A stretch of DNA of 64,000 nucleotides. Source: a virus. Its lineage: Duplodnaviria; Caudoviricetes. Made by a program: the position numbers and the translations under genes. Location: positions 160,001 to 224,000 of IMG/VR virus record IMGVR_UViG_3300046779_001841; one strand, 5' to 3'. The notes under the pieces were generated by a model. The model was not told the DNA's origin, ran no database searches, and saw only the letters and a list, made by a program, of their open reading frames with translations. Positions 1 to 64,000 of this stretch are shown one piece after another (position 1 is the first letter of the stretch; each line of letters begins with the position of its first letter).

Positions 1-2
1 CT

Positions 3-1607
3 GCTGGTGTTACAGAAGTTTTTATTGCAAGTGCTGAATCACCATATCAATTTAGAGGTGATGGTAAAGTTGATGTTTGGATTCGTGGTATCAGTTTAGC
101 CACTGCTACTGATCTTTATGCTCCAAATTTCCAAACTCATAAAGATAGTCTTTTCATTCCGATTGCAGAAGGTATCTATCAATTTAAACTCGCAGATCTT
201 AATGCTACTCTTTATAAAATGATAGACAATCAAACTTTAGATTATGGTTTAAAAAATGCTACCACTGGTGAATGGTTTGATCTCACTAATCATACCATTA
301 CAAATGATAATATTGTTATCTTAGATACTTCTTTGACACAACCTGATTACAATATCACAGATGTTATCATAGGTGACTGGCAAGAAAATATTAGTGAAAT
401 CATTTATCTGACTAGACAACCTGTTGAAGCGATCACCTCTTTGATAGATGAAAATAATATTGAATACAATCAAGATACCGATTATTTCTTTAAGAAAACA
501 CAAGATCCTTTATTAGAAGGATATTCCACTAAAGCAAAAGACTATGTTTTAATTAATAATGGTGTTATCACTTCGGATTTTTACTTTACCAGTGAAGTCT
601 TTAGTTTTATAGGTTTCTATCCATATCAAATCACCAAGAAAGGTGTAGATGCTTTAAGTATTCAACTCCGACTTGATTCAAGTGGTGATGGTGAAAGTGA
701 ATATACTTTCTTTAATTCATCTTTTCAAGACAATCCAGATTTCATTATTGAAACTACTGATGATGGTTATACTACTTTAACACGAACATCTAATTCTACC
801 ATTCCAGAAAATGTTACAGTCAAAGTAAATTACAGTTATCTCTTAAATCTTGAAATCACATATACATACAATCAAGTCTTGCAAAATGTTCAAACACAAA
901 TCAATAATACAAAACACCTAACTGCAGATATACTTGTTAAAGAGTGTATTCCTTGTCCAATAGATATTAAAGCAAATATAGTAGTTAGAAAAGGTTATCA
1001 AGTCAGTGATCTTGATCTCACAATCCGAAACAATATCCAAAATTATATTTCTTATCTCAATCTTGGTGCGAATCTAAGAGTAAGTGATATTATTCGTGTG
1101 CTTGATAATGCAAATGGTGTTGCTTTTATTGAACTACCATTAACTCAACTTTCTTTTAGTGAAAACACTCCAGTCATTAGAGAAGAGATCATACCGAACA
1201 ATAATTACACACAAATTGTATCTTTAACCACTGGTGTTGCGATTGCATGGCTTATTGATGTAAATCTAAGCCAACCTGCAACTACTGATGGTGGTGAATT
1301 GGGTCGTGTTTATGGAAATGGTTTAGAATTTAATCTTGTTTCACAATCTCTTATCACTACCTTAGGTAATACTCCAAATAGTGTTTGTATTATTGGTAAT
1401 GCAGATCTTGTTATAGGTGGCAGTCCTATTACAAATAGTAAAAATAAAATCCTTGTTGCATTGCCTATTGGTAAATCACCTAGTGAATATACATTCTATG
1501 TGAATTATCAAACTGCTGATGGTGCTGGTTTTGTGAATAACTTATCTTTAAATCCATTCTCTTATTTCACTGTTGGCAACTTAAACTTCACTTACAGAGC
1601 AGAGTAA
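3..1607 (+). CDS. Baseplate wedge protein, baseplate J-like (5' truncated by window edge)
   Basis: Frame 3 is open from base 3 (AGVTEVFIAS...RGDGKVDVWIRG...) into the listed 219 ORF. GV..V....G.G.VDV and the C-terminal 'IDIKANIVVRKGY...I..YI..L.LG..L..SDII..L....GV' pattern are typical of gpJ-like wedge proteins. Confidence 0.7.
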   Translation, partial: AGVTEVFIASAESPYQFRGDGKVDVWIRGISLATATDLYAPNFQTHKDSLFIPIAEGIYQFKLADLNATLYKMIDNQTLDYGLKNATTGEWFDLTNHTITNDNIVILDTSLTQPDYNITDVIIGDWQENISEIIYLTRQPVEAITSLIDENNIEYNQDTDYFFKKTQDPLLEGYSTKAKDYVLINNGVITSDFYFTSEVFSFIGFYPYQITKKGVDALSIQLRLDSSGDGESEYTFFNSSFQDNPDFIIETTDDGYTTLTRTSNSTIPENVTVKVNYSYLLNLEITYTYNQVLQNVQTQINNTKHLTADILVKECIPCPIDIKANIVVRKGYQVSDLDLTIRNNIQNYISYLNLGANLRVSDIIRVLDNANGVAFIELPLTQLSFSENTPVIREEIIPNNNYTQIVSLTTGVAIAWLIDVNLSQPATTDGGELGRVYGNGLEFNLVSQSLITTLGNTPNSVCIIGNADLVIGGSPITNSKNKILVALPIGKSPSEYTFYVNYQTADGAGFVNNLSLNPFSYFTVGNLNFTYRAE

Positions 1608-1611
1608 TAAC

Positions 1612-4002: not shown

Positions 4003-4009
4003 AGGATGA

Positions 4010-4642: not shown

Positions 4643-4652
4643 GAGGTTTAGC

Positions 4653-7547: not shown

Positions 7548-7550
7548 AAA

Positions 7551-19726: not shown

Positions 19727-20881
19727 TTAAAACATTTGAGCAATAGCTTTAGCTAATGGTGGTGGAACTGCATTTCCTATTTGTCTATACATAGAATTTA
19801 AAGATCCTGTAAAAATAAAGTCGATTGGGAAACCTTGTAGTATTGCACACTCTCTTACAGATAATCGTCTTTGTTTATTTGGATGGATTTCTGGAATTGA
19901 TGCAGTAATTGTATCACTTGGTGTTTCCCAATTACACACTCTTAACATTTGATCAAATGTTATTTTTCTTTCTTCAAATGTTAGCATTACTTTATCATAA
20001 GTATCATCTAAATTTAATATTTGTTTTAAAGCTAACCAATCTTCTCTATTTGGCAAACTACCATAATCATCTTTTCTAAACCAATGTTCTGCAGTATGTG
20101 TATATCCTAAAATCTCATTTATTTTTTTCATACTCTTAGTTTTATATTTATCTAAATATACTGCGATCTCTTTTTGACAAACATCATATTTTCTTTTCAT
20201 AAAAGTATCTTCAACATTCGTACTCGCAACATGATTATATATCATTTGACCATTATGTTCAAATGGCAAATCTCTTGTTCTTACACCAGCTAAAAATCCT
20301 ATCGCTTCTTTTGTTGTGATATGAAGTTGTTGTGAAAATAAAGAATATTCAGATTGATGTGTTGGTATAGGAAAAGAAACAGGTTTATTTATATTATTGC
20401 CAATAATGATAACTCTTTCTCTATTTTGTGGTACACCATAATCACTGGCTTTTACTAATTTGTAATTTACATTATATCCAATATCTTTAAAATCTTTAAG
20501 AATGTTTTCAAAGATTTTACCACCACTTAAAGACAAAATACCTTTAACATTTTCTGCCACAAAATATTTAGGTTGCTTATCTTTTATTATTCTAAGCATT
20601 TCTTTATACAAGAAATTTCTTTTATCCATTTCATTTCTATTTGCATTAGATATACTGAAACCTTGACAAGGAAAACCACCCACTACTATATCTATATCAT
20701 TTGGCAAATCTTCCGATTTAACTTGTTGTATATCTTGAAGAAGAGTATGTTTGCCAATATTCAATTCATAAGTGTTTAGTGCATCTTTGTAGAAATCCAA
20801 AGCTAAAACAATTTCATGTCCTGCTTGAATGAAACCTAAATCAAAACCACCACATCCAGAAAATAAACTCAAAACTTTCAT
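19727..20881 (-). CDS. C5-cytosine DNA methyltransferase (orphan)
   Basis: Motifs I (LFSGCGG), IV (GGFPCQGFS), VI (ENVKG), VIII (PQNRER), IX (RRLSVRECAILQGFP) and X (YRQIGNAVPP) in canonical order. No adjacent endonuclease. Confidence 0.97.
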   Translation of the reverse strand: MKVLSLFSGCGGFDLGFIQAGHEIVLALDFYKDALNTYELNIGKHTLLQDIQQVKSEDLPNDIDIVVGGFPCQGFSISNANRNEMDKRNFLYKEMLRIIKDKQPKYFVAENVKGILSLSGGKIFENILKDFKDIGYNVNYKLVKASDYGVPQNRERVIIIGNNINKPVSFPIPTHQSEYSLFSQQLHITTKEAIGFLAGVRTRDLPFEHNGQMIYNHVASTNVEDTFMKRKYDVCQKEIAVYLDKYKTKSMKKINEILGYTHTAEHWFRKDDYGSLPNREDWLALKQILNLDDTYDKVMLTFEERKITFDQMLRVCNWETPSDTITASIPEIHPNKQRRLSVRECAILQGFPIDFIFTGSLNSMYRQIGNAVPPPLAKAIAQMF

Positions 20882-27746: not shown

Positions 27747-30700
27747 GATCACCTTTTAATTCTTTAATTTCTTTTTTAAGATTTAATACTTTTTCTTGTT
27801 CATTTACATTTAATGAGATTGCAGTAAGAATATCGCTATCTTGTTCTGCAATACCATACATCATTTGTTCATAAGTCTTATATTGTTTTTCTGATGCTTT
27901 TTTCTTTCTGGCAACTCTAGTAATAAGATTTACTTTCGTTTTCTTCCTATCAAAAACAACAGGCACTTTAAGATTAAATTTAGCTTCAAATTCAGCAATC
28001 ATAGCAAGAGCAGATTCTAAGACAAGTTTTAAATCTTTTGATGTTTTTACTTTAAGTGAACGACTCTTAAAAGCATTTTTTAGATTTTCTTCATAGGTTT
28101 TTAAGATCATTTGTTTTTCTTCTATGGTAGTATGATCTAAAATCTCTTCTCTAAAGAAATCCAACCAACAATTAAGACTATCCACATCAAAAGGTTCAAC
28201 AGGTGAAGATAGATATTCTTCTAATGTTTCATATCCTGCTTCTGCAACCTTAAACTTAACATATTGATTCAATTTCTTAAATGATTTACTTTTGTCATCC
28301 AGATTTAAAGTGTAATCCTGACCTGTACCTACTAATTTCCACCACTCTTCTCCTGCTTTGATAGTTTTACCATTCTCATCTTTAAATGTTATTTCATATA
28401 AACTTAAAATATCATCTATTTTAAAACCACCTTCTATCTTTTTTTGGATATAATATGCACAACGAGCATAACTCATAAGATACCAACTAGAACCGCTTGT
28501 TAAGAAAAATCTTTGATCTTGTTCAAAGACTTTATCTTGAATTGCTTGTTGAATAGTTATTTTATCCACTGGCAAAATAAAAGCATTAAACATTTCTTCT
28601 TGTTTTTCATATTCTATAAGTTTTTCTTCATATTCTCTTTTTCTAATCTGAAATTGTTTTTCTTCTTTCTCATAAGCATCTAGTTTTTGATAATATTCAT
28701 CTAAGGCTTGTGAAAATAATTCTTCTTTAGAATCTTCATCTGTAAAAATACCATTAGAAATATCATTGAGTTTCTGCATTGCTTGATGATGACCTTTCAT
28801 AGCCCATTTAACAATTAGATCATTCCATATATCTAAATTATGATCTTCCAATTTTAAAATTTCACTATTCTTCTCATAAATATATTCAGTTGTTTTATCA
28901 TCAAGAAATCTACCATTTCCCAATTCAATACTTTCAGGTTTCAATAAATTCTTTTCATGGTATGGAAAAACATTATTATGTCTTTCCATGAAATGAAGCA
29001 CCAAACGATTCTTCATAGCATATGCAAATTCTTCATCTAGCTCTCTTGGCTTGAAATAACAATATTTATCTATTTGGTCTTTCCAGTATTGTGGTGTATT
29101 TCCAAAATTTGCAATCAAATCTGTAGTACAGTCATTATAAAATGAAGTAAGATATTTTAGCTTGAAATCAAAATTTTCTAGTACAGGTGGATTGCCAGGG
29201 TGCATTAACTTTAAAGGTTGTAAAACAGGTTGTGGAATAGCTTGAGATGGAAGTGCATCTTTGAAATAAGATTTCCTAGCTTTTATATAATGATTAGCAT
29301 ATTCTTTCAATGCAAATTCATTTAATTGATAACCAATAGGTGCATTATATCCGAATTTTGGCCACACATAATATCCAATAAAAGCAGATGGTTTACCTAT
29401 TCCTGTTTCTGGATCAATTTGAGTAAAATCACCTGCACCATGAGTATATAAGTCAGTGGCACCTTCTTTTTTCATTGCAATAAGTTGAGTGAATAAAGCA
29501 CGATTACCTAGACTATTTGGCGCACATGAAGAAGTCTTAAATAATTTGTTTTCCACTACCATTGCATCCCAATCATCTATATGTCTACTAAGACCATCCA
29601 ACCAGTCACTCTTACTACCAGAACCAGTAAGTTTATTAAAATAAAGATCTAGCATATTACTGGTAACATTTACACTTTGATCAATATCTCCAACATTGAT
29701 ATGTTCAGATGCGACATTTAAGATACCACTAAAACCAGTTAAATCTAACATCTTTTTTAGTTCTTCTTGTCTTCCAGGTTCAAAATTTAATATTTTCTTA
29801 GCTACTGGATGATTAAAACGATTTGGATCTAATGTTGTGTTTGTTAATGGTCTTTCTCTTTTACTTTTTTGAACAGATTCTATCACTGACAATTCTTTTT
29901 TTGTAGGCATTAATGCTCTTTTGAATTTGGATATAGATGTAGAATCGCTTACATTTACTTGTTCGCTAAATTGCACTGGAACATTACCCACAATAATCTT
30001 ATCTACCACTTCATTATAAAATTTTGGTGTGATTGCGATCTCAATATCATCTCCTTCTGTTGCACCTTCTTCTGCATAAACAGAATTGATAAAACGCTCT
30101 TGTTCAAAATCACCACTTAATTTTCTTCTCATCACAATATTATTGTCCCAACCACCTTCATCTAAATGTATCAAGACTTTAAATTTGTTTAATTTAAAAT
30201 CGGTATAAGATGAATTACAAACCATTGTTGCGACTTGATAATTGTCTATAATAAATTCTTTGATTGTCTTATTTGCCCAAGTCATTGATTTTGGATTTGC
30301 AGTCCTTAAAACAAAATTCTGTAAATTTGTTTCTCTTGTCACTTTACCTTTTTTCAATGGCATACCATTTTGATAAAACTGAATATAGTTTGTTAAACAT
30401 AAGACATGGATCTTACCTTTAATCTTATGTGATAAAGATATAACTGTTTCTTTTGCTAAATCATCATCTTGTGTGTAATAAACCACTCTTTTAGAATCAT
30501 TGATAAATTGAATACCTTGTTCGACTGCAGAAATCACTTTACTATTATCTTGTTCAAATTTTTGATCTGGCTTACCTTTCATTCTCAAGTATTTTGCCAT
30601 CGCTTTATTTGGATTAATATTAAACTGGTTCAAGAGATCGATCTTTTCACTTAGTTCATATTTTGCTTTTTCTTTTTCACTTCTGATCGCATCAGTGTCT

Positions 30701-33681: not shown

Positions 33682-36600
33682 TTATTTGCCTTTCTTTTTA
33701 GTAAATGGATTTGAAACAGGTTTCAAATCACCTTTTAATACAGAAATTTCTTTTTGAATTTCTTTAACTTTTTCTTCATTTGCAAGTTCTTGATCAATAG
33801 AAGAAAGAAGTTCGCTATCTTGTTCTGCACTCTCAGCCATCATTTGTTCATAGGATTGAAATTCTTCATCTGCAAATTTCTTTTTTGCCACACGAATATT
33901 TGATGCTTCAGGATTTCGTTCTTTCCATGTTCTAATTTTCTTTAACAACTCTATTCTTTTACTTTCTTCCATTTTTAAAAGAACATCTTTCAAGTCTTTA
34001 CTATAAGACTTGAGAATTTGAATTTGGTCAGATTTTGGTAAACGACCAACACTTGGCAAATCGTCTTCAAAAAATCTTCTCCAGCAATTTTCTCTTGTTG
34101 TGTTAAAAGGTTCGACTGGTGATGCTAGATATTGTTCTAGTGTTTCAAATCCTGCTTCTTTAGCTTTTTGGTTCATATATTTTGTTAGTTTCTTATATGA
34201 CTTAGAATTTGAATTTAAATCTAGTTCATAATGTTGTGAAGATCCATATCTCTTCCAATATTCTTCACCTGCTCTAAAAGTTTTACCATTCTCATCTCTT
34301 GATGTTATATCATATAAATCTACAATATCAATATAACCATTGGGTGAGATTTTACCTGATTTTTGAATAATATAGGCCGCCTTAGCATATCTTACATCAT
34401 AAGCAGTTGCACCATCATTTCCCAACCAATTTTTAATCTCTGATGAATAGACACCTGCCTGAATATCAGATCTAATTTCTTTTAGATCTAGCGAAAACGC
34501 ATTTATAAATTTATATGATTCAGCTTCAAATCTTTGCTTTTCAGCATCATAATTTGCAAGACTTTGATTATAAATCACCATTGCTTGATTGTACTCTTCC
34601 ATTTTCACTTCATATTCAGCTAACTTTCTTGAAAAATCAATATTGGCTTCTTCTGTTCTTTGAACAGCAAGATCATATACATCTTGAATCTCTGCTTGAT
34701 CCAAGGGTCTTTTTGTGTCTTGAATCTTATTAAAGAGTGTTATTAATACAGAATTTTGTTGAGTCAATAGAGGTGTTACAAACTGATTAAAAAGATTTAA
34801 TCGGTTTGTAAATTCATTCAACGCACCTTGTCTTTGAGTATTATTATAATGAACCATATAAGCACGATCTCTATGGTCATAAAATCTACCACTTCCTGGT
34901 TCTAGTGTCATTGGATCGATTGTATTAAATGTTGTAAGAGGATATAAATTGTTTCTATATGCTTGATTGATAACAAGTCTTAGATTAATATGTTTTTCTT
35001 TTTCTTCATCTATATTTCTTTTGGCGAAATACATATAATTAAGAAAATCAGAAACATTTGATCCAAGACTACGCTCAATGCGTCTTTTTAATTCATCATA
35101 ATTACTCACACCAAAAATCCCTATTGCTAAAGATTTTTTTTGTTCCAACATTGCATCACCTGTAGATCTTTGTCCAATCAAAGTATTTGGATCTATACCA
35201 GTAGTTATTCTTTCGGGTCTTACAGGTTTTTGTGGTTGAACAGGTACAACCAAATTAAATGTAGTATTACTAACACTCGAAGATCCTAATTTTTCTATTA
35301 CCATCTTTTCAAACTTTTTTGCTCTTTCTTTCATAGAATCCACCTGTATTCCAACTTGAGCATTATAACCGAATTTTGGCCATACATAATATCCTATAAA
35401 CTCATTAGTTTCTGATAGACCTGTTTCTGGATTAAAAGAACCCCAACCACCTGCACCTAAAGTTTTTAAAGTAGATTTACCTTCTTTTTTCATGGATATA
35501 AGTTGAGTGAATAAAGCACGATTGCCTATACTATTTGGCGCACACTTAGATGTTTTAAAGATGTTGTTCTTTACATAATCATTATTAATAGTTCTTTCCA
35601 TAGTAAGAATCCAATCACCATAACTAGAAGCATTCCCATAGTTAAATTGAATATGTTCAGGTGCGACATTTGCAATACCAGAAAGACCCATTAAATCTAC
35701 AGTTTTCTTTGAAGATGCACTTAAATTTTGGAAACTTGGATGATTAAAACGATTTGGATCTAGTTGTGTATATTTGACTGGATCTTCTCTTAATCCTCTT
35801 TCTCTTTCTTCTATCTTTAATTGCATTTCTCTAGTAGGTGCTAATGCTCTAGCAAAATTTTCCAAGTTTGGTTTAGTTGCCTTTTCAGTAACTTTACTAT
35901 GTTCAATACTATCATAATTTGCAGATAAATTAATCGCACCACTTGTAGTGATAATATCACTGAAAAACTTTTGATCTACTTCATGTACAAGTCCTCTTAA
36001 TTTATCTATTGTAATATCTCCTGCCATCTCTTGTGGCATCACTGCATCTACCATTACTTCAATTACTGCATCTTCTTGTCCTTGTCTAAAAGCACGAGCA
36101 GTCCTTTGCTTTAATTCTTCACTATCCCACCCATCTCTATCTAAATGCACAACAGCCTTAAATTGTTGTAAATTAAATCCTCTTGCATAAGATGAGTTCG
36201 CTACCATTGTTGAAACTTGATTATTCTTAGCAATAAATTTCTTTACTGTATTTACTGCCCAAGTCATATCTTCTTCTTGTGGTTCAACTGTTGCGGCCGC
36301 AGTTCTTCCCATTCTCTTTTCAATTTGTTCTGTAGTCAAACCTGCTTGTTCTAATCTTTCTTTGATTTGTTCTTCAGTAAGTTCTTTTACCATGAAATTT
36401 TGAATCTTGGTCTTCTTTGTTACACGACCTTTTGTTAAAGGCTTACCTGCTTGATAGAACACAATCGCATTTGATAAACAAAGAGCATGGACTTTGGTTG
36501 GGATTCTTAAAGACAATTTAATAACTGTTTTCTTTGCAACATCATTATCTTCTGTGAAATACAATGTTCTCTTAGGTGCATTCCCTGTTAAGAATTGAAC

Positions 36601-39600: not shown

Positions 39601-40107
39601 CAATAATCTTAAACTTTCCTTGAAGAATGGCTTCTTATTCAAGGTCTTGATCATTTCATATGCAGGTGATGTAACAGTTTCTAATTTTGCATCTGGATCG
39701 TTTGTAAAATTTGTCCAAATCTTCTTTAATTCTTCTTCAATAAAAGCATCCACTTTATTGACTTGAATACGCAAATCAGTCCAAATATCTGTTAAGACAT
39801 CATCATCTTCTCTATTGATGAAAAAAGTCTTATACCACAAATATGCTTTTGCCAAATTCTCATCCAAAGGATACTTGGAAAAAGAAGTATCTATCTTTTT
39901 AGATGCTACTTTTTCTGTTAATTCATCAATCAGATATTCTTCAAGTTCAATCAATTCTACATAATGATTAAACAAATAAGCACCTGCACCTTGTACTTTA
40001 CCTTTGGTTTGGTCATTTCGACTTGGATTTTTGACATACCATAAGAATTGACCCTTAAATGGATTTCGACTTCTATTTGGATTACTGATAAGTTTTACAA
40101 CAGGCAT
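33682..40107 (-). CDS. Giant SNF2-family ATPase + GNAT protein, paralogue B (intact ATPase motifs)
   Basis: QIEALAWL, ALDTGVGKT (Walker A), LIVGP, IFDEVN (Walker B), LLTGS, SSYARGFNLQ, QRTARAFRQGQ. GNAT-like APNSIGNRALF...GAGG...GYYVWPKFGYNA. Confidence 0.85.
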   Translation of the reverse strand: MPVVKLISNPNRSRNPFKGQFLWYVKNPSRNDQTKGKVQGAGAYLFNHYVELIELEEYLIDELTEKVASKKIDTSFSKYPLDENLAKAYLWYKTFFINREDDDVLTDIWTDLRIQVNKVDAFIEEELKKIWTNFTNDPDAKLETVTSPAYEMIKTLNKKPFFKESLRLLSAWIQLVCKAKNIPYEISEKFTTSGAKFDVFTLHETKTDAVLQLERVRELKEKYSQYEQSLIKDKLSRSGAYTDYKSVDGDMLDLYFNNKEQNISPSDVLKQRKKKFIENDAVLALMTRAGTGIDFTTDTESVALDKALSFNQKAITRSLKEETERRYSQVGLFIQSIIEKNDKFDLTIYNYIEMNYYLISPRIPTGVQFSLKSLLTKLKQSKIDSASKYQFILKQWFNAQGFDIELEPYKEIFNNLSAVLKTEERYEDLMSWVNFAQAKKQERQEWLNDKKKNISDAYKKLKELEKPNSIVNGKTLQQEIKEKQEEFLKKANIIYSQHLGTIEGENRLSAYEVYQQKRLESDLKNKSIRDALPEIVTRTVTNEAGQRVKKHELVFKHIKKVPVYKKDNAGNVLMVDGQPVQEIEMGSDGNPKLDSLNNTIPIFTEVKLNIPSVTVEKLSDEMVDAIPGVEREIELSDDTAVKRTNPLKFAHMVKVKTTTINGITKDIITRGPFKGFSVEDLANATGRLTGDGKCYSVSSNGEIVSIYESIETDSGEVKVNYDALEEPYITWARDRFLIGLPNDIKHTPERKAIKKLSDTRASMEVVPGSEKRRWSFYFEGDDYEAIKDCLGSCLMSKKAHEELQKYYKMLLQKDRALQPENLAKFTPQAIGGFKAEVLPNKPLKFNNKQIEALAWLQSNGLKGVMALDTGVGKTLVGVASMQLASKEKPNAKFLIVGPDRLVGNFMGELKFFLEEAVAENLTNRTTEIGYTEFVRMYEEGADFKQYYCMIFDEVNEALKGKKAQAISNVKHPRKILLTGSALEKSPMDLFRFVSLSTGNPVDPTKEKAFMDKYAVNIGGKFVGVKPEVRHQFNNWVKQNAYFADKMDVDYEEAGQVALQPLQKLTTNVNMPKEVAVAYKEISDIISVQMNQIKDRYSLLLADTPIEEIPASVQREKDFAVGNLKDKISLLHMFSLNPHKAMEKFNKMKGNPPKEYTFSNPKIDQAEELAVQFLTGNAPKRTLYFTEDNDVAKKTVIKLSLRIPTKVHALCLSNAIVFYQAGKPLTKGRVTKKTKIQNFMVKELTEEQIKERLEQAGLTTEQIEKRMGRTAAATVEPQEEDMTWAVNTVKKFIAKNNQVSTMVANSSYARGFNLQQFKAVVHLDRDGWDSEELKQRTARAFRQGQEDAVIEVMVDAVMPQEMAGDITIDKLRGLVHEVDQKFFSDIITTSGAINLSANYDSIEHSKVTEKATKPNLENFARALAPTREMQLKIEERERGLREDPVKYTQLDPNRFNHPSFQNLSASSKKTVDLMGLSGIANVAPEHIQFNYGNASSYGDWILTMERTINNDYVKNNIFKTSKCAPNSIGNRALFTQLISMKKEGKSTLKTLGAGGWGSFNPETGLSETNEFIGYYVWPKFGYNAQVGIQVDSMKERAKKFEKMVIEKLGSSSVSNTTFNLVVPVQPQKPVRPERITTGIDPNTLIGQRSTGDAMLEQKKSLAIGIFGVSNYDELKRRIERSLGSNVSDFLNYMYFAKRNIDEEKEKHINLRLVINQAYRNNLYPLTTFNTIDPMTLEPGSGRFYDHRDRAYMVHYNNTQRQGALNEFTNRLNLFNQFVTPLLTQQNSVLITLFNKIQDTKRPLDQAEIQDVYDLAVQRTEEANIDFSRKLAEYEVKMEEYNQAMVIYNQSLANYDAEKQRFEAESYKFINAFSLDLKEIRSDIQAGVYSSEIKNWLGNDGATAYDVRYAKAAYIIQKSGKISPNGYIDIVDLYDITSRDENGKTFRAGEEYWKRYGSSQHYELDLNSNSKSYKKLTKYMNQKAKEAGFETLEQYLASPVEPFNTTRENCWRRFFEDDLPSVGRLPKSDQIQILKSYSKDLKDVLLKMEESKRIELLKKIRTWKERNPEASNIRVAKKKFADEEFQSYEQMMAESAEQDSELLSSIDQELANEEKVKEIQKEISVLKGDLKPVSNPFTKKKGK

Positions 40108-40192
40108 TTTAAACCCCTTTTCTTTCTAAAAAAAAGTAATCTTTCTATGATACATACATTCCATAAATTTAATAATTATTAAACCACCAACA

Positions 40193-43100
40193 CTATTTCT
40201 TTTTTCCAAATGGATTTGTTACTGGTTTCAAATCACCTTTTAATACTGATATTTCTTTTTCTACTTGTTTCACTTTTTCTTCATTCGCTAGTTGTTCATC
40301 TAAAGCAACCATCATATCGCTATCTTGCTCTGCCATTTCATACATCATTTGTTCATAAGTCTTTGTACCACTCTCTATTGAAGCAAAACGAATATTTTCA
40401 GTAATGCGATTGAGCATCTTCCATTTTTTAAAAGTTTCTAAAAACTCTCCTACATAATATTGAGTTTCATTCATAAGAACATATTTTAAATCATTGCGAT
40501 AAGCCTTAATTACTTGTAACTTTTCTTCTCTGTTCATTTTAATATTGCCATCATTCAAGAAAGAAATCCAGCAAGTAATCTTTTTAGTATTAAATGGTTC
40601 AATAGGTAAGGATAAGTATTCTTCCAAGTTTTCACAACCAGCTTCTTTGACTTTATGATTCACATACTTTGTTAGTTTTTTATATGACTTGGAATTTGGA
40701 TCTACACTTAACTCGTATTCTGTACCCGTACCTACAAATTTCCACCACTCTTCTCCTGCTTTAAAGATTTTCCCATCGGATTCTTTAAATGTTATTTCAT
40801 ATAAGTCTAAGATTTCTATCAAACGACTTATTTTATTTGATAATTTTAGATAGAACGCAGACTTAGCATATCTTACTTTCCACCAATCTTTACCATTTCC
40901 CAACCATGATTTAATTTCTGATGTATATACATCTGCATCAAGATCTGCTTGAATTTCTTTTTTATCTATTTTGAAACTTGAGATGTCATTAATTTTTTGT
41001 TGAAAAAATCCATTAAATTCTTTCTCATATCTTGCATGAATTTGTTCATATACACTCACTGCTTGATTATACTCTTCTAAATCTTTTTGATATTTCTCTA
41101 CTCTCTCATCATAGATTTTCATCGTTTCTTCATATTCAATATTATTTTCTATTTGCACTTGCTTCATGTCTTCATAAATAGGTTGCATTTCTTCTACCGA
41201 TAATGGCATATCGGTATCTTGGATCTTATTGAATAATGCTATTTTTTCTGGATAATTTTTCATCAATGGTGTTGCAAAAAAATCCCATTGACTATTTAGT
41301 CTTTTTTCCCTTTCTATATCCTGTAAAACAGCATTGTGTAATTGCCAATCTACCATATCTTGAGGATATTTAGGTGTTTCTGTTTTTTTGAGATTCTTTT
41401 TATGAAAGGGAAAAAATTGTATTTCAAATCCAGAATAATAAGCAATTCTATTTTCTATATGATATGCTACATCTTCTGAATAGTTCTTTTTTTTAAAATA
41501 TCCATAATCTCTTACAATTTTAAAATCATCTTTTGCAAATTGAGAACCCATAGCACCTAGTCTTTGATCAACATATAAAGCAAATGCACGAACAGTTTTT
41601 TGTGGTGTAGTCGAAGCCAGTATCGCTTTTAATTGTAATTGTTTTCTTTCTTCACTAGAACCACTATTTGTCATCAATTCTTCTATGTCTAAATCTAATT
41701 CATAGTTTTCTTTGTATGGTCGTTCTCCTACATCTAGTGGATCAGGTGCTATGGGTTTTACTCCATCTGTAATCGCTTCAGTCCATTTTAATTTTTGGCT
41801 TACCATCTTTGCAAAGATGTTCGCAAATTCTTCTATTTGATCTAAATTAAGAAGAACTTCAGCATTATAACCAAATTTCGGCCACACATAATATCCTATG
41901 TAATTTTGACCTTTTGCTTCTCCTGTTTCAGGATCAAAAGAATTAAAACTACCTGCACCTAAACAAGCGATAGCATCTAATTTAGCTTTTTTGACTGCAA
42001 CAAGTTGACTAAATAACACATGAGTTCCTAATCCATTTGGCGCACAATAATTTGTTGTAAAAGCATCATTCCAAATATAATTCTCACCATAATATTTTCT
42101 TCTATCTGTACCATGTAGTGTAGTAATCCAATCTCCAACAGATTTCATTTCATTTTCTCTATCCGATGTCAATCTAAATTTAATATGTTCTGATGCAATA
42201 TTCGTAATACCTGTAAATCCTGTTAAATCTAGCATTTCTTTTTCATGTTCTGATAGATTTTCCATCGATGGATGGTTAAAACGATTTGGATCTAATTGTG
42301 TATATTTAATTGGATCTTCTCTTAATCCTTTTTCTCTCTCTTCTATCTTTGCCAACATTTCTCTTGTTGGCAATAATGCTCTAGTAAAATTCTCTAAATT
42401 CACTTTCTTGCTTGTTGTTAATTTTTCTATCGCTTCATATTTTTTTGTCAAATCCAAAGCACCACTTTCTCTAAGAATTTCACTAAAGAACTTTTGATCT
42501 ACCTCTTGCACTCGATCTCTTAGTTCATCTATTGATGTTGATCCTCCTACCACTGCATCCAAGATATATTCTGTTACAGGTTCTTCTTTTCCTACACCTT
42601 GTAGTCTTGCAGTTCTTTGCTTTAATTCTTCGCTATCCCATCCATCTCTATCTAAATGCACCACTGCATTGAATTGTTGTAAATTAAATCCCCTTGAATA
42701 AGATGAATTGGCAACCATCGTTGCGACTTGATTATTCTTAGCAATAAATTCCTTTACAGTCTTTACTGCCCAAGTTACATCTTCTTCTCCTATTTCATCT
42801 TCTTCTCTTGCCACTCTTCTCATTCTATCGTCTATCTCAACTTGTGATAATCCAGACCTTGACAAATTCTTTAGAATTTCTTCATCTTTAAGTTCTTCCA
42901 ACATAAAATTTTGAAGTTTGGTATTCTTATTCACAACACCTTTCTTTAAAGGCTTTCCTGCTTGATAAAAGACAATACTATCAGATAAACATAGTGCATG
43001 GATCTTGGTCGGTATTCTTAATGAAATCTTAATGATTGTCTTTTTTGCCACATCTGCATCTTCAGTGAAATATACTGTTCTCTTTGAATTTTCTACTAAA

Positions 43101-49043: not shown

Positions 49044-50552
49044 TTAAATCACATCTGTTAATGGATCTGCTTTTGCATTACCTGTTAATGGCAATAAAGT
49101 CAAATTATCACTATTCGTGATTTTACCTGCTGGAAATAAAATGTTCGCATTAAATGTTGGAAATCCTGCTTGATCTCTACTCTTTAAACATTGATACTTA
49201 ATTTGCTTCTGCTCTCTTACATCATTCCCAAACCAATTCGCTATCACTATATCTGCACTTCTTTCTGCTTCATTCGCATAAGACAAGTGTGTTAATTGAT
49301 ACTCTCCATTCTTTTTAAGTGCATCATTATAACCATCACGACTGATTTGGAATAAACATAAAACAGGTATTCCTTGACCACGATTAAAATTCATTGCCAT
49401 TCTCTTCAAATCTCTAATCACTTCATTTAATCGTTCTGTAGTAGATCCATATTTTGTTCTACTTGCCAATAACAAAGCATGATCGACTACTATCAAGTCT
49501 ATCTTTTCTTTTTGACTTAACAATTCTGCTTTTGCTCTTAAATCTTCTACTGTAAAATCAAAGCTATCTGGATTATCACCTTCAATATGGATTGCTCCAT
49601 ATTCTCCACTTTCTCTACATTTCTTTAAATCTGGTACAACATGATTAAAAAAGAAATCTTTTTCTTCTGGTGTTAATTTACCACCACGAACTTTAGATGG
49701 GTCAATACCTTCATAGACTTCTACATTAGGTTTTTGTAAACCTAATGCTATTCTTACATTCTTAAATTTCGCATGACAAGAATGAATACAATAGATAGAT
49801 CGTCTTACTTGTGGATAGTGCATTTCTAATGAGAAATATAGTGTATTGGTTTTATCCCAAGTTGCTTGACTATATGCCCAATTTAATGCTGTTTTAGATT
49901 TAGCATGACCTGTAAATCCTGCAAGAATATACAATTCTTTCTTTCTAAATCCACCTATCGCATCATCTATGATTTTAATTCCTGTTGTAGGAATAACTTC
50001 TCTACCGGCCTCTTCAGCTTTGGTATATTCTTCTGCAAGATCATCTACATCTGTTAAAACTTCACCACCTAATTTTGATCCAAATGTTGGGGTCATAACA
50101 TCTACAAGTTTATTCGATAAGAAACGACCAGCATCTCTTGCACCTTTAAGTAGTGTTTTATGATTGCCTTTTTCTTTAATTTCCAATCCACTTTTAATAA
50201 TGGTTTTCACATCTGTGATGGTATTAGAAAGTTTAATAATTCTTGCTTCTTCTACATGGTTTTCGATTTCTGTTAAAAAATTTCCTTTGTAGATAGGTGT
50301 TATTGATGCTAATGCACGAACACGATCTGAACATTCAAATTCATTTTGTGTTTCAAAAAATTGAATAATGGTTTGATGATCTGGCAAATGTCCATGATTT
50401 GACATAAATCCTTTGATATAAGACCAAATCGCATTATCTTCTTTTGCTTCAAAATTAAATATGCTCTCTCTCAATGCCATGTAATTCATTTGCATTTGAT
50501 TAATATCATCACCTAGTCTTTGATCAGGTAAAATACTTCTTAAGATTTTCAT
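49044..50552 (-). CDS. dnaB: Replicative DnaB-like helicase
   Basis: LYILAGFTGHAKS (variant Walker A), FSLEM, IVVDH, LFQISR, LSYANEAERSADIV, KSRD. Confidence 0.9.
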   Translation of the reverse strand: MKILRSILPDQRLGDDINQMQMNYMALRESIFNFEAKEDNAIWSYIKGFMSNHGHLPDHQTIIQFFETQNEFECSDRVRALASITPIYKGNFLTEIENHVEEARIIKLSNTITDVKTIIKSGLEIKEKGNHKTLLKGARDAGRFLSNKLVDVMTPTFGSKLGGEVLTDVDDLAEEYTKAEEAGREVIPTTGIKIIDDAIGGFRKKELYILAGFTGHAKSKTALNWAYSQATWDKTNTLYFSLEMHYPQVRRSIYCIHSCHAKFKNVRIALGLQKPNVEVYEGIDPSKVRGGKLTPEEKDFFFNHVVPDLKKCRESGEYGAIHIEGDNPDSFDFTVEDLRAKAELLSQKEKIDLIVVDHALLLASRTKYGSTTERLNEVIRDLKRMAMNFNRGQGIPVLCLFQISRDGYNDALKKNGEYQLTHLSYANEAERSADIVIANWFGNDVREQKQIKYQCLKSRDQAGFPTFNANILFPAGKITNSDNLTLLPLTGNAKADPLTDVI

Positions 50553-51233: not shown

Positions 51234-52834
51234 TCTTTTGCATCCTCTAGTAGACCATTGAAAATATCTTTGAGTTCTGTATCAGACACTCCTTGTATCT
51301 TATCACTTTCTTCATCATTTTTTAGTCTTTTTCCTAAAACATTTTCAATTAAATCCATTTTATTTGCTAATGCTTTCATTACTCGATCATCTATTGTCTT
51401 TGGACAAACTAAATGATAGCAAAATACACGATCATGTATACTACCAATACGAATCATACGACCAATAATCTGTAAATAATCTCCTGCACTCCAAGGACTA
51501 TCATAAAAAATCACTGCTTTTGCTAATTGTAAATTTACACCTTCTGCGGCCGCCATCGTAATTAACACCACTTTCACATCTGATTTCTCATCTTGAAATG
51601 CTTCTTGTGATTTCTTCCTCTCATCATCTTTCTCACCACCAGTAATTCTTACACTTTTAATTTTCTTCGCAGTCAATTCTCTTTCTAAAATATCTACCAT
51701 CTTTCTAAATCTTGAGAAAATGATAACTTTCTCACCATCCAATTCATCTTCTAGTAATTCAAACAAAGCATCTATTTTTCCACTATCACCTACACCATCT
51801 ACAAGTTCAAGATGATTTACTATCTGTTGGCAATACATGACTGCTGTTAGTTTTGTTACTTCTTTTTGTTTAATTTCACCAGTATTCGCATCATATTGTT
51901 CTAGTAATCCACTTAATGCTTCTTTATATTTTGATCTTTGAACATCTGATAATTCACATTCAATTCTCTTAGTAGTCAATGGTGGTAATTCACTCGCTAC
52001 TTCATGTTTTGGTCTACCTACAAAGAATGGATCTATCTTATCTTTAAATGCTTCAATATCTGATTTACGATGTCCAACTACAAACTTAATTCTTTTTCTA
52101 CCTATTTGCTTATCTACACATACACAATAGTTAGACATGAAAACATTTTTACTTGGCATAAGACCAGGTACAGTCACCTTGTAAATTGCCCAAGCCTCCA
52201 TAAGTCTATTCTTAATAATCGTTGCAGATAAAGACCAAACCTTTTCTGCACTACCAGATAAATGAGAACACACTTGATGAATTTGAGATGTATCATTTTT
52301 AAATGCAGTGGCTTCATCAAATACCATAACATTGCCAGTGATATTTTGTAGATTTTCAAAATCTATAACTGCAGTACGATAACCTAAGATCAAAACTTTA
52401 ATGGATGTACAAGCAAAGAAAGCATCATAAGTCTTTTGTCTTTTCTTTTTATCACCAGTAACAACAAAGCAATTAATACCACCATTGGTAAATTTTTCAA
52501 ATTCACTCGCCCACTGATTTAATGCAGATTTAGTAGTGCATATAACTGCTGGCATATCTGGTTTCTTTTCCCAAACATAACACAATGTAGCAATAACCTG
52601 CAAAGTTTTACCTAAACCCGTATCATCGCCAAGAACAAATCGTGGCATTGCAAGTAAATGTAAAATACCTTGTAGCTGGTAGTTTCTCAAAGTTAAAGGT
52701 TTGCCATTTGATAAGTGTGTTCTCAAGAAAGAATTTGCTGGCATCTTGATTTCTTGTTTAACACGGACTTCTCTTAATTTTTCAATAGTGGCAAGAAGTT
52801 TTGGATCTTTTAAATAATTCATATAAGTAGTCAT
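51230..52834 (-). CDS. Stand-alone SNF2-family helicase/ATPase
   Basis: LRNYQ..G, LGDDTGLGKT, VFDEAT, LSATIIKN, EKVIIFS, AEGVNLQ.A, PWS...YLQIIGRM.RIG. Confidence 0.93.
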   Translation of the reverse strand: MTTYMNYLKDPKLLATIEKLREVRVKQEIKMPANSFLRTHLSNGKPLTLRNYQLQGILHLLAMPRFVLGDDTGLGKTLQVIATLCYVWEKKPDMPAVICTTKSALNQWASEFEKFTNGGINCFVVTGDKKKRQKTYDAFFACTSIKVLILGYRTAVIDFENLQNITGNVMVFDEATAFKNDTSQIHQVCSHLSGSAEKVWSLSATIIKNRLMEAWAIYKVTVPGLMPSKNVFMSNYCVCVDKQIGRKRIKFVVGHRKSDIEAFKDKIDPFFVGRPKHEVASELPPLTTKRIECELSDVQRSKYKEALSGLLEQYDANTGEIKQKEVTKLTAVMYCQQIVNHLELVDGVGDSGKIDALFELLEDELDGEKVIIFSRFRKMVDILERELTAKKIKSVRITGGEKDDERKKSQEAFQDEKSDVKVVLITMAAAEGVNLQLAKAVIFYDSPWSAGDYLQIIGRMIRIGSIHDRVFCYHLVCPKTIDDRVMKALANKMDLIENVLGKRLKNDEESDKIQGVSDTELKDIFNGLLEDAKE

Positions 52835-53895: not shown

Positions 53896-54669
53896 ATGTC
53901 TAAAAATCCAGATCAAAATCCACAAAATGTTGGTGGCTTTGATGTTCAAGGTACTAGTGAACTTTACAAATTTAATACATCACCAAATACTCGTGTTGCT
54001 CTTTCTCAAAAGGTTAGAATACTTGCACCTTCTTATGGTAAAACAGGTCAATCTGCTTTAAAGAAATATCAATTAGGTGTTGTAGAATCTTTTTCTTATG
54101 AAGGTAACAGTAGATCTACTGAAGCTAGACGCGGTATTGGTTTCGGTGATCAAATTGCAGAACTTGTTCCAGGTTTAACAGACCCACCAACCATTTCTTT
54201 TACTCGTGCTTTATTCTATCTTTCAAATGCTTTTCAAACTATTGGTTTTGCTGGTGGTGTTGATGGACCCGTAAGAAGTGTAAAACATACAAGATGGCCG
54301 TTCGATGTTGAAGAACAACTTGTATTTAGTGATATTGCAGATAATCAATCAGATGGTACTGATGGCAACACTTATACACAAGGTATTGTTAAAGTAGATT
54401 ACTCTGCTCAAAATGTTACCGAACCTGATGTAGAAGCATTTAAATATAAGCAAAAAGTCCATAAAGCAATCTTAACTTATTTTGAAACTTGCTGGTTACA
54501 TTCTATCGACCACTCTGTTGATATTGGTACTGCACATATTATGGAAAGTGTTGCTTGTGGTGTTACAGATGTTCATGATGGTCTATCTACTTATGGTGAA
54601 TTTTTATCCACAGGTAATAATCCATATCTTGGTCAAGTCGCATCTAAACGATTCCCAGGCACTCGTTAA
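53896..54669 (+). CDS. Tail tube protein
   Basis: GVVESFS...RSTEARRGIGFGDQIAELVPG...ISFTR and FETCWL.S pattern. Lies upstream of the chaperones and tape measure. Confidence 0.65.
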   Translation: MSKNPDQNPQNVGGFDVQGTSELYKFNTSPNTRVALSQKVRILAPSYGKTGQSALKKYQLGVVESFSYEGNSRSTEARRGIGFGDQIAELVPGLTDPPTISFTRALFYLSNAFQTIGFAGGVDGPVRSVKHTRWPFDVEEQLVFSDIADNQSDGTDGNTYTQGIVKVDYSAQNVTEPDVEAFKYKQKVHKAILTYFETCWLHSIDHSVDIGTAHIMESVACGVTDVHDGLSTYGEFLSTGNNPYLGQVASKRFPGTR

Positions 54670-60171: not shown

Positions 60172-60189
60172 CAGAAAGGATTTGTTTAA

Positions 60190-60783: not shown

Positions 60784-60786
60784 AAT

Positions 60787-61854
60787 ATGAAACCTACTCT
60801 TGATATTAGTCAATTTACTCAACTCGCTACAGGCGAACTTTTTCAAATGTACAGTAATGAAGTTTCTAATGGTGCTTATCCTGTTGATACTTCTGATCCT
60901 GTTGCTCGATCTTATTCTCCTTTTGTTCTTTATATTGAACCACCAGATGTTATCTTTCCTAGAGTAGTTAGGAAACAAAGTGAAATCTCTTCTACTAAAA
61001 TTCCACCTTTTGCATCACCTTTACGAAATCGTGCTTATCTTGCCACGAATGTTAATTCTCTCAATGGTGCTTCTATTTCTTCTAATGCTAGAAATCCTAT
61101 CTATTCTTTTAATAGTCAAGTTACTGAAAATAATACTTCTCAAGCTGGGCTTTCCGATAGAGATGTTGCACTAGATATTATTGATCAATACAAACAACTT
61201 AGAGATTTACCTCCAATGGTCTTTTTAGTCAATCCACAATCTTTAGGCTTGTCATATAATAAAGTTCAACAATATAGTGAAAGAACTCGATTTGGTTATG
61301 TCTTTCAAGCATGGGGTGAAGAATTACCTGATCTTGATGTTCAATGTAAATCAGGTGCTTATATTGCTTATGGTGATTCTAGTAAAACTGCTACTGGTTT
61401 ACAATTCGCATCTATGAGAGATAGTGCTAGTTTTAGACAAATCCTTGCTATCCTTGCCATGTATCGCAATGGTGCTACTATTCGTGATCGTGTTGGTAGA
61501 TCTGAAGTCATACATGAAGTCGGTCGCTTTGTTATTGAATATGATGGTACTCGATATAAAGGCACTCTTGAATCCTTTGAATATGGTTATGATGAAACAC
61601 AAATGTTAGGTGGTATGGATTTTTCTTTTAAAATGAAAGTCCATGAAATGACTTATTTTGAACCAACTAAGATACAGAATAAAGCTACACCTAAAATTTC
61701 TTTTGATTCAGAAAACATCGAACTCAATCAAGATATTCTTGAAGATAATCAAACTACTAAACCTGTTGGTACAGGTGTTTTACTTCCTACTGAAGAAAGC
61801 CAACAAACTCAAGTTAATGCTTTGTTTAATTCTTCTTTCCAACAAGGACAATAA
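60787..61854 (+). CDS. Second tube-initiator-like protein (paralogue of 60190-60783)
   Basis: FLVNPQSL..SY.K.......R.G.....WG and LAMYRNGA..D align with the upstream gene. Confidence 0.55.
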   Translation: MKPTLDISQFTQLATGELFQMYSNEVSNGAYPVDTSDPVARSYSPFVLYIEPPDVIFPRVVRKQSEISSTKIPPFASPLRNRAYLATNVNSLNGASISSNARNPIYSFNSQVTENNTSQAGLSDRDVALDIIDQYKQLRDLPPMVFLVNPQSLGLSYNKVQQYSERTRFGYVFQAWGEELPDLDVQCKSGAYIAYGDSSKTATGLQFASMRDSASFRQILAILAMYRNGATIRDRVGRSEVIHEVGRFVIEYDGTRYKGTLESFEYGYDETQMLGGMDFSFKMKVHEMTYFEPTKIQNKATPKISFDSENIELNQDILEDNQTTKPVGTGVLLPTEESQQTQVNALFNSSFQQGQ

Positions 61855-61855
61855 T

Positions 61856-64000
61856 ATGAGTACAACCACTAAAGGCACTAGCTTTATCAATACTTCAAGA
61901 ATTGAAAATAGACCTTATGCTGGATCTTGGAAACCTAATTTTAGAAAAGTCCATACTTGGTCACCCGATGCTCTTGTTTATATTAATGGTGATACTGCTT
62001 TAATTGGTTGCCAAGAATGTAAAAACAAAATCGATTTTCAACCTTTCATCACTTCTGTTAATGTTGAAGCTGGTAACACATCTTCATCTTCTTCATCTTC
62101 TATTAATTTCTCTATTCCCAAGCATCATGGTGATAGCATTTTTAAAGATGGTACTTTTATCTTATGTGTTGGTCTTGAAGTCAATGTTTATTATCGTGGT
62201 TATTTTAATGTTCAAAACCTTTTAGAATCCGAAACACTTGATTATGGTGATGAAGTTTATGATTTAGCTGATCTACAAATGAAACCTTATTATCCTGTTT
62301 TTCATGGTGTTGTCACTAATGTTTCTTATTCTTATAGTGGTGGCTTTTATACTGGTTCTCTTTCTTGTAATGGTTTGTTACACTTTTGGCAATATCAACA
62401 TATTGTCACTCAAGCGGCCGCACTCGAATCTATTCCAAATGCTCAAATGCAACCAACAGGTCATGTTTTCACTGGATGGACACCACATCAAATTATCAAA
62501 TATTTGTTTAAAGATCGTGGTGGCGCTCAAAAAAATGATCTTGGCTTTGGTATCAATAATGCTACTAATTTGTCTTCTCAAGGTGGTGATGAACTTTGGC
62601 AACAAGCACTTCAATATTGGGAAACTAGATTTTCTCAAGGTCTTTATAATTTAAGAATGTATGGTGCAAGTGGTAATCTTCTTTCTAATGGTGCAGATGC
62701 TTATATTGATACTCTTATTGTTCAAAGTGGTGCTTTAAGTCCAAGATCTCAAAATGGTCTTCCATCTATGAACTCGCAACAAAAAATTGAAAATACACTC
62801 GATCCTAAAGTTCTTAGACAATATGATTTAATTGAAATTCCTTTGACTGGTACAGATCCAGAACAAATCCAACCTTTCACTTTAGATGTTGGTCAAGTTG
62901 GTCAATTAGATTCTTATCAATCTACTTATGAAACTAAACTTGGTATTGCAGATACTGTTGTTGAAAAAACTAATTGGGAATTTTTTCAAGATGTAGATGG
63001 TGATCTTGTCTTTAAACCACCTATGTTTAATCTTAATGTTAAAGGCAATCGTGTCTATACTATTAAACCTGAAGATATTATTGATATTGGTTTTTCACAA
63101 AAAGAACCTAATGCTACTTATGTTGTTTGTAAAGGTAGTGTTATGGGAAACATGGGTGGTGTTGTAGATAATCAACAAATTACACCACAAGCACAATATG
63201 TTGATTATCGTCTTGTTGCTAAATTTGGTTGGCGTGAAAACCAATTCGATGCTACTCATATCAAAGATCCTAAATCTGCTTTTTATATGGCAAGTGCAAG
63301 ACTTGATCTTTTAAATAAAGATGTAGAAGGTTGTACTTTAACTATTCCACTTAGACCAGAATTAAAACCAGGCTATCCTATCTATATTGAACACATTGAT
63401 TGTTTCTATTATGTAGATTCAGTCAGTCATTCTTTTTCATTTGGTGGTGATTGCAATACATCTTTAACACTTGTATGTAGACGAAAGAAATTTATATTGC
63501 CTGGTAGTGCAAATACATCTTATGCACAAGATAGCAGTAAAGCGATTGATCTTGCTAATATTTCTCAACCAAGTAAATATCTAAACACTTTAGATTCTGA
63601 AGGTAATATTCGTGTTACTGGATTTCCTAATGTTGTTATGGCAATAGATCAAACTAAAATCAATCCTGCATCTTTACCTAGTGGTCAAGATAATATTGAA
63701 ATCACTACTCCAGAACATCTTAATATGCTTATTCTTGAAGCACACAATGCTGGTATTTTACAAATCGCACCACAAGCAAGTAGTGATTTAGGTAAAGGCA
63801 ATCCTTTATTTACGGGTCCATTCTTTGTTAGAAATCCTGCATCTACAGATGGTGAAGGTGAAATCATTGGTATTCTTGATCTTAAAGACACATCAAATCA
63901 AATATCATCACAAGCGAACATAACACCAAATAGTAATAATAATGCAGTGCAACCTAAAGACACTTCTATTAAAGCGAATGATAAAGATCTAAATGAAATC
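61856..64000 (+). CDS. Baseplate hub protein (3' truncated, absent from the ORF track)
   Basis: Frame open from ATG 61856 to the window end (MSTTTKGTSF...). FFQDVDGDLVFKPPMFN and LRPELKPGYPIYI....YYVDSVSHSF are gp27/gpD-like hub features. Confidence 0.75.
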   Translation, partial: MSTTTKGTSFINTSRIENRPYAGSWKPNFRKVHTWSPDALVYINGDTALIGCQECKNKIDFQPFITSVNVEAGNTSSSSSSSINFSIPKHHGDSIFKDGTFILCVGLEVNVYYRGYFNVQNLLESETLDYGDEVYDLADLQMKPYYPVFHGVVTNVSYSYSGGFYTGSLSCNGLLHFWQYQHIVTQAAALESIPNAQMQPTGHVFTGWTPHQIIKYLFKDRGGAQKNDLGFGINNATNLSSQGGDELWQQALQYWETRFSQGLYNLRMYGASGNLLSNGADAYIDTLIVQSGALSPRSQNGLPSMNSQQKIENTLDPKVLRQYDLIEIPLTGTDPEQIQPFTLDVGQVGQLDSYQSTYETKLGIADTVVEKTNWEFFQDVDGDLVFKPPMFNLNVKGNRVYTIKPEDIIDIGFSQKEPNATYVVCKGSVMGNMGGVVDNQQITPQAQYVDYRLVAKFGWRENQFDATHIKDPKSAFYMASARLDLLNKDVEGCTLTIPLRPELKPGYPIYIEHIDCFYYVDSVSHSFSFGGDCNTSLTLVCRRKKFILPGSANTSYAQDSSKAIDLANISQPSKYLNTLDSEGNIRVTGFPNVVMAIDQTKINPASLPSGQDNIEITTPEHLNMLILEAHNAGILQIAPQASSDLGKGNPLFTGPFFVRNPASTDGEGEIIGILDLKDTSNQISSQANITPNSNNNAVQPKDTSIKANDKDLNEI

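Follow-up and report, generated by a model that had tools for sequence, protein, structure and literature searches.

GCNGC and Ala-Ala in the window and the genome

The window is a stretch of 64,000 bp, bases 160,001 to 224,000 of one viral contig that measures 316,221 bp and has 31% G+C (IMG/VR record IMGVR_UViG_3300046779_001841). It contains genes for an NAD-dependent ligase, a DnaB-like helicase, an SF2 helicase, tail-like proteins and three giant paralogs. The subject of this study is the word GCNGC in this phage, the Ala-Ala pairs of its proteins, and the overlap of the surviving GCNGC sites with GGCC. No near match among deposited phages was found by megablast against a phage database. 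Freshwater metagenomes of at least nine studies, besides two runs that are possibly the source sample, contained near-identical DNA, and the runs holding the phage are labeled as freshwater, lake or, in one run, marine metagenome. The cyanophage marker NblA gave no hit in the phage.

Across the whole window (1..64000) neither GCAGC nor GCTGC occurs, i.e., there is no GCWGC. GCSGC occurs seven times, limited to four loci (34376; 36293 and 36296; 51546 and 51549; 62414 and 62417), each overlapping GGCC, and three of the four are NotI sites (GCGGCCGC). The proteins encoded in the window contain 7 Ala-Ala pairs, compared with 62 expected. A preliminary description of this DNA had claimed that GCNGC was purged so strongly that Ala-Ala had nearly vanished, and these counts bear it out. 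The absence of Ala-Ala from large proteins, also claimed there, was seen again: the 1884-amino-acid (aa) protein has none, the open reading frames (ORFs) of 1720, 964 and 813 aa hold no GCNGC and hence can encode none, and the 2090-aa protein is likewise devoid of Ala-Ala.

All four Ala-Ala loci listed in that description overlap GGCC and are in frame. Three are on the minus strand. The GGCCGC at 34375..34380 belongs to GCG GCC TAT (Lys-Ala-Ala-Tyr) in a 2141-aa SNF2-like protein, and within that protein the NotI site at 36293..36300 reads GCG GCC GCA (Thr-Ala-Ala-Ala-Thr). The NotI site at 51546..51553, again GCG GCC GCA, encodes the three alanines of the motif M-AAA-EG in a 534-aa helicase. 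The fourth, the plus-strand NotI site at 62414..62421, reads GCG GCC GCA (Gln-Ala-Ala-Ala-Leu) in the ORF at 61.7 kb; the corresponding codons of the nearest relative spell Gln-Ser-Ala-Ser-Leu (TCA GCA TCA), and the Ala-Ala-Ala position varies among relatives between S, A, G and T.

The same pattern extends over the whole genome. The single GCWGC lies at 119,860, in a spacer between genes. GCSGC was found 34 times, 32 of them overlapping GGCC as GGCCGC or GCGGCC, so that a scan of 316 kb gave one GCWGC and two GCSGC free of GGCC, not many. Counted by locus, 24 of 26 overlap GGCC (binomial P < 1e-12 even at p0 = 0.25); the background overlap rate, from relatives that purge GCWGC, is about 9%. 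There are eight NotI sites. Ala-Ala is the rarest of the 400 dipeptides in the 330 ORFs (97,733 aa), with 31 pairs versus 290 expected, an observed/expected ratio (O/E) of 0.107. Ala-Ala-Ala was counted 7 times versus 15.8 expected, and all copies are NotI sites. The observation is thus confirmed as real, very strong and genome-wide.

Expectations for coding DNA were obtained from a synonymous shuffle, which preserves the proteins, and from a codon-order shuffle, which does not, and are quoted in that order. GCWGC was observed 0 times, compared with 37.3±3.7 and 298±15, and GCSGC without GGCC 2 times, compared with 10.8 and 40.5. The composite words GGCCGC and GCGGCC were over-represented (29 observed; 1.5 and 3.7 expected), as was NotI (7 observed; 0.1 expected from either shuffle). 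GGCC itself was depleted (34 observed; 89 and 132 expected). The drop in expected GCWGC from 298 to 37 indicates that the bulk of the GCWGC purge took place at the amino acid level. These results support the conclusion that GCNGC has been purged deeply enough to strip Ala-Ala from the proteome. All 22 overlap loci in called genes are in-frame Ala-Ala, indicating that the sites exist through a need of the protein and not as DNA signals. Just two overlap sites (118604 and 119061 of the contig) fall outside called genes; they lie within 1.3 kb of the sole GCWGC (119860), and this cluster falls in spacers about 40 kb before the window.

GCNGC, which the preliminary description had singled out, is indeed depleted but is merely one of more than 20 purged words. 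Avoidance measured against the codon- and protein-preserving model holds for GCWGC, and ACGT, GATATC, GAATTC, GCGC, CCGG and CGCG are similarly depleted. ACGT, with 318 copies expected, does not occur anywhere in the 316 kb and is missing from many relatives too. GATATC was found 0 times versus 119 expected, GAATTC 1 versus 77, and GAGAC/GTCTC 3 versus 158. CAATTG, ATGCAT, TCTAGA, AAGCTT, GTGCAC, GDGCHC, RCATGY, TTCGAA, CCWWGG and others are also purged, while GATC and TGCA are not purged and are slightly over-represented. Two words purged in this phage only, CGGCA/TGCCG (2 versus 53 expected) and CTGTC/GACAG (24 versus 373), were not matched to an enzyme. The dipeptides whose codons unavoidably form an XYNY'X' palindrome are all scarce: AA (GCNGC), GP (GGNCC), PG (CCNGG), TV (ACNGT) and VT (GTNAC) take ranks 1, 3, 6, 10 and 16 of 400. 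WP (TGGCC), PW, HM and MH are also low.

Spelling of the retained Ala-Ala pairs and comparison with relatives

The preliminary description held that all surviving Ala-Ala pairs are written GCG-GCC. This is correct for the window; genome-wide, 14 survivors are instead GCC-GCN after a codon ending in G. Among the GCC-GCN pairs outside Ala-Ala-Ala, six of seven are preceded by a G-ending codon, and such codons make up 9.3% of all codons in the genome. The six flanking codons include TCG three times, which accounts for 2% of Ser codons, and ACG once. A GGCC made through a TCG or ACG flank costs a second CpG in a genome where CpG has an O/E of 0.34. A small second signal comes from CCGG, of whose five surviving sites two (CCGGCC or GGCCGG) also overlap GGCC; the CCGGCC at 50005..50010 is in the window.

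A search with the helicase gave 33 related viral loci, and the codons of the motif were compared in the 31 that span it. M-AAA-EG is invariant in 31 of 31, and its codons vary by lineage, the three alanines being written GCGGCGGCA, GCTGCAGCT, GCTGCCGCA and in further forms. Over the same 21-kb stretch, Ala-Ala has an O/E of 1.0 to 1.1 in lineages that keep GCWGC, and it falls to 0.07 or 0.00 elsewhere. About two-thirds of the 33 relatives (31 to 50% GC) have 0 to 3 GCWGC per 21 kb. The purge is patchy, since relatives at 81% identity retain 10 to 18 GCWGC.

The breadth of the GCWGC loss, in relatives that presumably infect different hosts, would also be expected if the phage family avoided the site of a nuclease that it encodes itself, e.g., for destruction of host DNA. 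Such self-avoidance is highly improbable. It does not fit the patchiness of the purge or the turnover of more than 20 purged words between 83%-identical genomes, the neighborhoods of the methylases yielded no candidate nuclease, and the overlap with GGCC would be left unexplained.

The nearest long relative (L039-L056) is represented by two syntenic contigs of 196 and 147 kb, about 83% identical to this phage. It has one GCWGC, six GGCC and an Ala-Ala O/E of 0.07. Its GCSGC sites number 12 and 4 on the two contigs, and one of them overlaps GGCC. Twelve orthologous sites could be compared. At five, the relative has GCGGCG or GCCGCC and this phage has GCGGCC. At one, the relative has TCC-GCC-GCT and this phage TCG-GCC-GCT, so that the flanking Ser codon was changed synonymously. 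At another, both genomes have a GGCC overlap, in different registers. At four sites the relative has AS, SAS, AVA or TA in place of the AA or AAA of this phage. The spellings in the relative include GCGGCGGC, in contrast to GCGGCCGC, GCGGCC and GGCCGC here. Altogether, GCGGCC or TCG-GCC-GCT stands in this phage at 6 to 7 of the 12 sites where the relative has GCGGCG, GCCGCC or TCC-GCC-GCT. Overlap and plain loci number 24 and 2 in this phage versus 1 and 9 in the relative (Fisher P = 5e-6). These comparisons support the view that the GGCC overlap has been enforced by changes that are synonymous when set against the nearest relative. In a closer relative (L083, 91 to 94% identical), Ala-Ser (GCA TCA) was found where this phage has GCG GCC, indicating that at least some of the switches are recent.

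When viral and metagenome collections were searched with the NotI-coded helicase motif, four short contigs were the only matches. Two of these (L016 and L077), from unrelated lineages of 36 to 37% GC, follow the overlap rule, as they have no GCWGC and four overlap loci versus one plain GCSGC locus; GGCC is not depleted in them. In the other two (42 to 46% GC), overlap and plain loci number 1 versus 3 and 2 versus 3.

GCG GCC GCA is the classic reading frame of NotI linkers, which raises the question of cloning linkers, and with it that of an assembly artefact or chance. The probability of such an origin is practically nil, because the overlap bias is at P < 1e-12, the sites lie in conserved protein motifs common to 31 relatives, and near-identical DNA occurs in the metagenomes of at least nine further studies. 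Two of the NotI sites showed no change among the matches listed (assembled contigs of four runs, 20 kb), which was not counted as evidence.

Purge lists differ largely between this phage and its 83%-identical relative. CCWGG was counted 91 times here and 1 time in the relative, ACTGG/CCAGT 414 versus 3, and GCGC 24 versus 0. In the opposite direction, GATATC was counted 0 versus 31, CAATTG 0 versus 44, CCGG 5 versus 31 and CTGTC/GACAG 24 versus 344. Such turnover between close relatives is as expected from an arms race with changing host enzymes. A parallel was noticed in the relative itself: CCWGG is purged, Pro-Gly is written CCS-GGN, and CCSGG and CCCGGG are 3.8-fold and 12-fold over-represented, respectively. 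Five of its six GGCC sites are GGGCC or GGCCC.

Candidate protection by GGCC methylation

These results show selection in the lineage against the word that GCNGC-cutting restriction enzymes of the host recognize. Because every Ala-Ala is written GCN-GCN, the word could not be lost silently, and the purge took about 90% of the Ala-Ala pairs from the proteins. In the pairs that were retained, the two codons and the one before them are chosen so that GCSGC lies within GGCCGC or GCGGCC, or within GCGGCCGC for Ala-Ala-Ala. The overlap rule could be accounted for by methylation of the inner cytosine of GGCC in the phage DNA. This cytosine is also the first C of the overlapping GCCGC, so that each overlapping GCNGC would be hemimethylated at the protective position and would escape cutting. 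GCWGC, which GGCC cannot overlap in such a register, would be absent, and GCSGC would survive only in the overlapping form.

The chemistry of the overlap, already put forward in the preliminary description, stands. In GGCCGC the target cytosine of a HaeIII-type methylase coincides with the first C of the overlapping GCCGC, and Fnu4HI is reported to be blocked when the first C of GCSGC is methylated, a single methylated strand being enough (PMC8936443). The methyl group would come either from a host methylase, and so be borrowed, or from one of the five orphan C5 methylases of the phage; we lean slightly toward the host. That GGCC methylation from either source shelters the surviving GCNGC has, in our judgment, about an even chance of being correct.

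Some alternatives for the protection were rejected. CpG methylation would act on every GCSGC alike, with or without a GGCC overlap, and a flank-dependent nuclease (HGCNGCD) does not fit the absence of GGCWGC and GCWGCC. Multispecific protection of both GGCC and GCNGC does not fit one GCWGC and 37 GGCC in 316 kb or methylases of 369 to 424 aa.

GGCC is itself only partly tolerated. Of its 37 copies in the genome, 24 are at overlap loci and 13 outside, and 29 have a CG flank. In coding DNA, GGCC overlapping GCSGC was observed 22 times versus 1.5 in the synonymous shuffle, which is the expectation used in this paragraph. WGGCCW was observed 6 times versus 62, GGSCC 1 versus 13, and CG-flanked GGCC outside overlaps 5 versus 12. 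To the last, mildly depleted class belongs the GGCCG with GGCC at 54296..54299 (plus strand). The GGCC at 29360..29363 (minus strand), also outside any GCSGC, is at a Trp-Pro codon junction conserved in the three giant paralogs, with the other copies at 35378 and 41880.

The second and third of these SNF2-like paralogs (35293-41904) are fused in contigs of three other metagenomes, where the junctions either leave out about 6.5 kb or jump back. These junctions point to strains with different paralog numbers, or to recombination between the copies.

The flank dependence of the GGCC depletion indicates that the threat may come from HaeI-like and GGNCC enzymes and not from GGCC cutters. It is also compatible with an explanation that needs no methylation, in which exposure to a GGCC cutter has ended and GCG-GCC is the least harmful spelling of Ala-Ala, the others hitting purged words or CpG. 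The purge of CGGCA/TGCCG, with 18 copies in the relative, excludes GCG-GCA and T-GCC-GC, and the low CpG content of the genome points the same way. However, placing GGCC before GCC-GCN through TCG or ACG adds CpG, the opposite of a saving. GCGGCT occurs once even though CGGCT, with 13 copies, is not a purged word. CpG is better tolerated in this phage than in the relative, but the GCGGCG that the relative favors has been abandoned here, and no known enzyme word distinguishes GCGGCD from GCGGCC. We therefore regard the explanation without methylation as unlikely.

The five orphan C5 methylases (PF00145; M1 to M5) are the candidate sources within the phage; genes of PF01555 and PF02086 were not found in its genome. 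M1, in the window at 19727..20881 on the minus strand, has bacterial homologs of 57 to 60% identity in a very large family. These are paired with a nuclease of the MwoI_N type (Pfam; 250 to 267 aa), encoded downstream by an overlapping gene. Only the catalytic parts of M1 align with M.HaeIII (residues 1-170 and 336-382), and its variable region scores -2.6 bits against HaeIII, with an insert of about 85 residues. M1 more likely marks an interrupted GC...GC site than GGCC. A GGCC specificity is improbable for it on two further grounds, the MwoI_N-type nuclease adjoining its bacterial homologs and the absence of GGCC from 21 kb of the phage relative that carries a 70%-identical ortholog.

M2 is nearly unique, with a single close homolog, and the variable region of M4 is conserved but unusual. 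No nuclease family was found beside M2 or M4. Sequence searches of the PDB with the methylases matched catalytic domains alone, and NCBIfam and PADLOC gave only generic names. The contigs of the nearest relative span 78.9 to 301 kb of this genome, where the M1 and M4 slots are empty; the M2, M3 and M5 slots lie outside their coverage.

M1 looks like a mobile cassette. Its ortholog in the relative L072 (9552-11173) is in the same slot, inverted, beside a T5orf172/GIY-YIG-like gene, and that in the L062 phage adjoins a LAGLIDADG gene; the nearest relative has no M1. The methylase repertoire varies widely across the phage family, and one relative (L080:13036-14193) has a weak N6_N4 methylase match besides a C5 pair.

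The peculiarities of M2 and M4 would suit a methylase with a site longer than GGCC (CGGCC/GGCCG or GGCCGC), which would mark only the composite while GGCC and GCNGC are restricted elsewhere. Such a site would account for the intolerance of GGCC on its own, and it agrees with the prevalence of CG flanks and with the depletion of unflanked GGCC, which matches that in the relative (O/E about 0.05 to 0.1). However, CG-flanked sites outside overlaps are few (five), such sites are absent from the ortholog-bearing relatives, and YGGCCR, CGGCCG and CGGCCR, tried as the tolerated word, each miss several of the 24 loci. We know of no C5 methylase with a site like CGGCC/GGCCG or GGCCGC, and consider a longer site quite improbable.

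Several observations weigh against sheltering by GGCC methylation. Outside overlaps GGCC is still about 7-fold depleted, and Trp-Pro, which is always TGGCC, has an O/E of 0.30; a fully protective methylase should leave GGCC neutral, unless it was recently gained. None of the five methylases has a HaeIII-like target-recognition domain, and the M3/M5 family is found with an Eco57I-type adenine methylase, in operons resembling Type IIS systems. In the relatives that bear orthologs (M1, 70% identity; M2, 61%; M3, 68% and 87%; M4, 55%; M5, 66% and 87%), GGCC is absent from the 4 to 21 kb sampled per relative. The data thus give no support to a GGCC methylase encoded by the phage, although a change of specificity in the copies of this phage is possible. 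Many relatives at 40 to 47% G+C purge GCWGC yet retain 10 to 20 plain GCSGC, indicating that the family-wide pressure is on GCWGC; what appears here as a GCNGC purge may be two separate pressures. The independent purge of CGGCA/TGCCG alone removes the GCG-GCA option. Finally, GGCC methylation, the host GCNGC nuclease and the host GGCC methylase are all entities that we infer.

GGCC, GCGC and CGCG stand at 14 to 21% of expectation here versus 0 to 4% in the relative, and these similar partial levels fit a recent release from GGCC restriction. Alternatively, the residual depletion may reflect continuing pressure from HaeI-like and GGNCC enzymes. The preliminary proposal that a host restricts GCNGC and that GGCC methylation shelters the remaining sites is partly supported. 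The purge and the overlap rule agree with it, but GGCC is itself depleted and no methylase of the phage can be assigned to GGCC. Such a methylation shadow is nevertheless the sole mechanism found that predicts all details of the overlap rule, and with its methylation steps conditional we hold it to be roughly as probable as all else together.

Relation to known systems and implications for protein sequence

Natural and laboratory parallels exist for parts of this scheme. Nelson and McClelland, and Hanish and McClelland in 1990, reportedly used methylases for cross-protection in vitro, e.g., a GGCC methylase blocking NotI. There, as proposed here, the methyl group for one site falls inside the overlapping site of another enzyme. 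That was a laboratory mapping trick, whereas here it would be a natural escape written into codon pairs and flanking codons.

Phages SPR, phi3T and rho11 encode multispecific C5 methylases (GGCC and GCNGC), which are longer and carry tandem recognition modules. M.BatI (GCDGC) is an orphan C5 methylase of a phage or prophage, and its example shows that GCSGC resists Fnu4HI when hemimethylated (PMC8936443). Like M1 to M5, these are phage-borne orphan C5 methylases, and theirs counter GGCC- or GCNGC-type restriction. Those phages protect GCNGC directly and need no purge, whereas this phage purges GCNGC, and none of M1 to M5 could be assigned to GGCC or GCNGC.

Avoidance of short palindromes in virulent double-stranded DNA phages has been described as synonymous, leaving the protein intact (Sharp 1986; Karlin 1992; Rocha 2001; Rusinov 2018; reviewed in PMC8410138). 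This phage is similar in that words resembling Type II sites are strongly under-represented and the set differs by lineage. It differs in that GCWGC was lost mostly at the amino acid level and in that a defined class of exceptions exists. The overlap with GGCC is the new element. This rule, and restriction avoidance that reaches into protein sequence, are well supported. That this phage would be the first natural example of escape from restriction through a methylation shadow, with a methyl group that is possibly the host's and made for another site, is a tentative claim, to which we give somewhat less than an even chance.

The usual view of restriction avoidance is that of a silent adaptation at the codon level. 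In this one phage family, homologous proteins range from an Ala-Ala O/E of about 1.0 to none, depending solely on the GCNGC purge of the lineage. That Ala-Ala content tracks this purge indicates that host nucleases edit protein sequence. The GGCC-overlap rule is precise and cheaply testable at 24 named sites. If sheltering by GGCC methylation is true, the overlap of two unrelated modification systems would dictate codon pairs, the neighboring codon and the permitted dipeptides, and protection through overlapping sites would be a true route of escape in evolution. From motif statistics one could then infer, for uncultivated phage-host pairs, both the words that a host cuts and those that are methylated.

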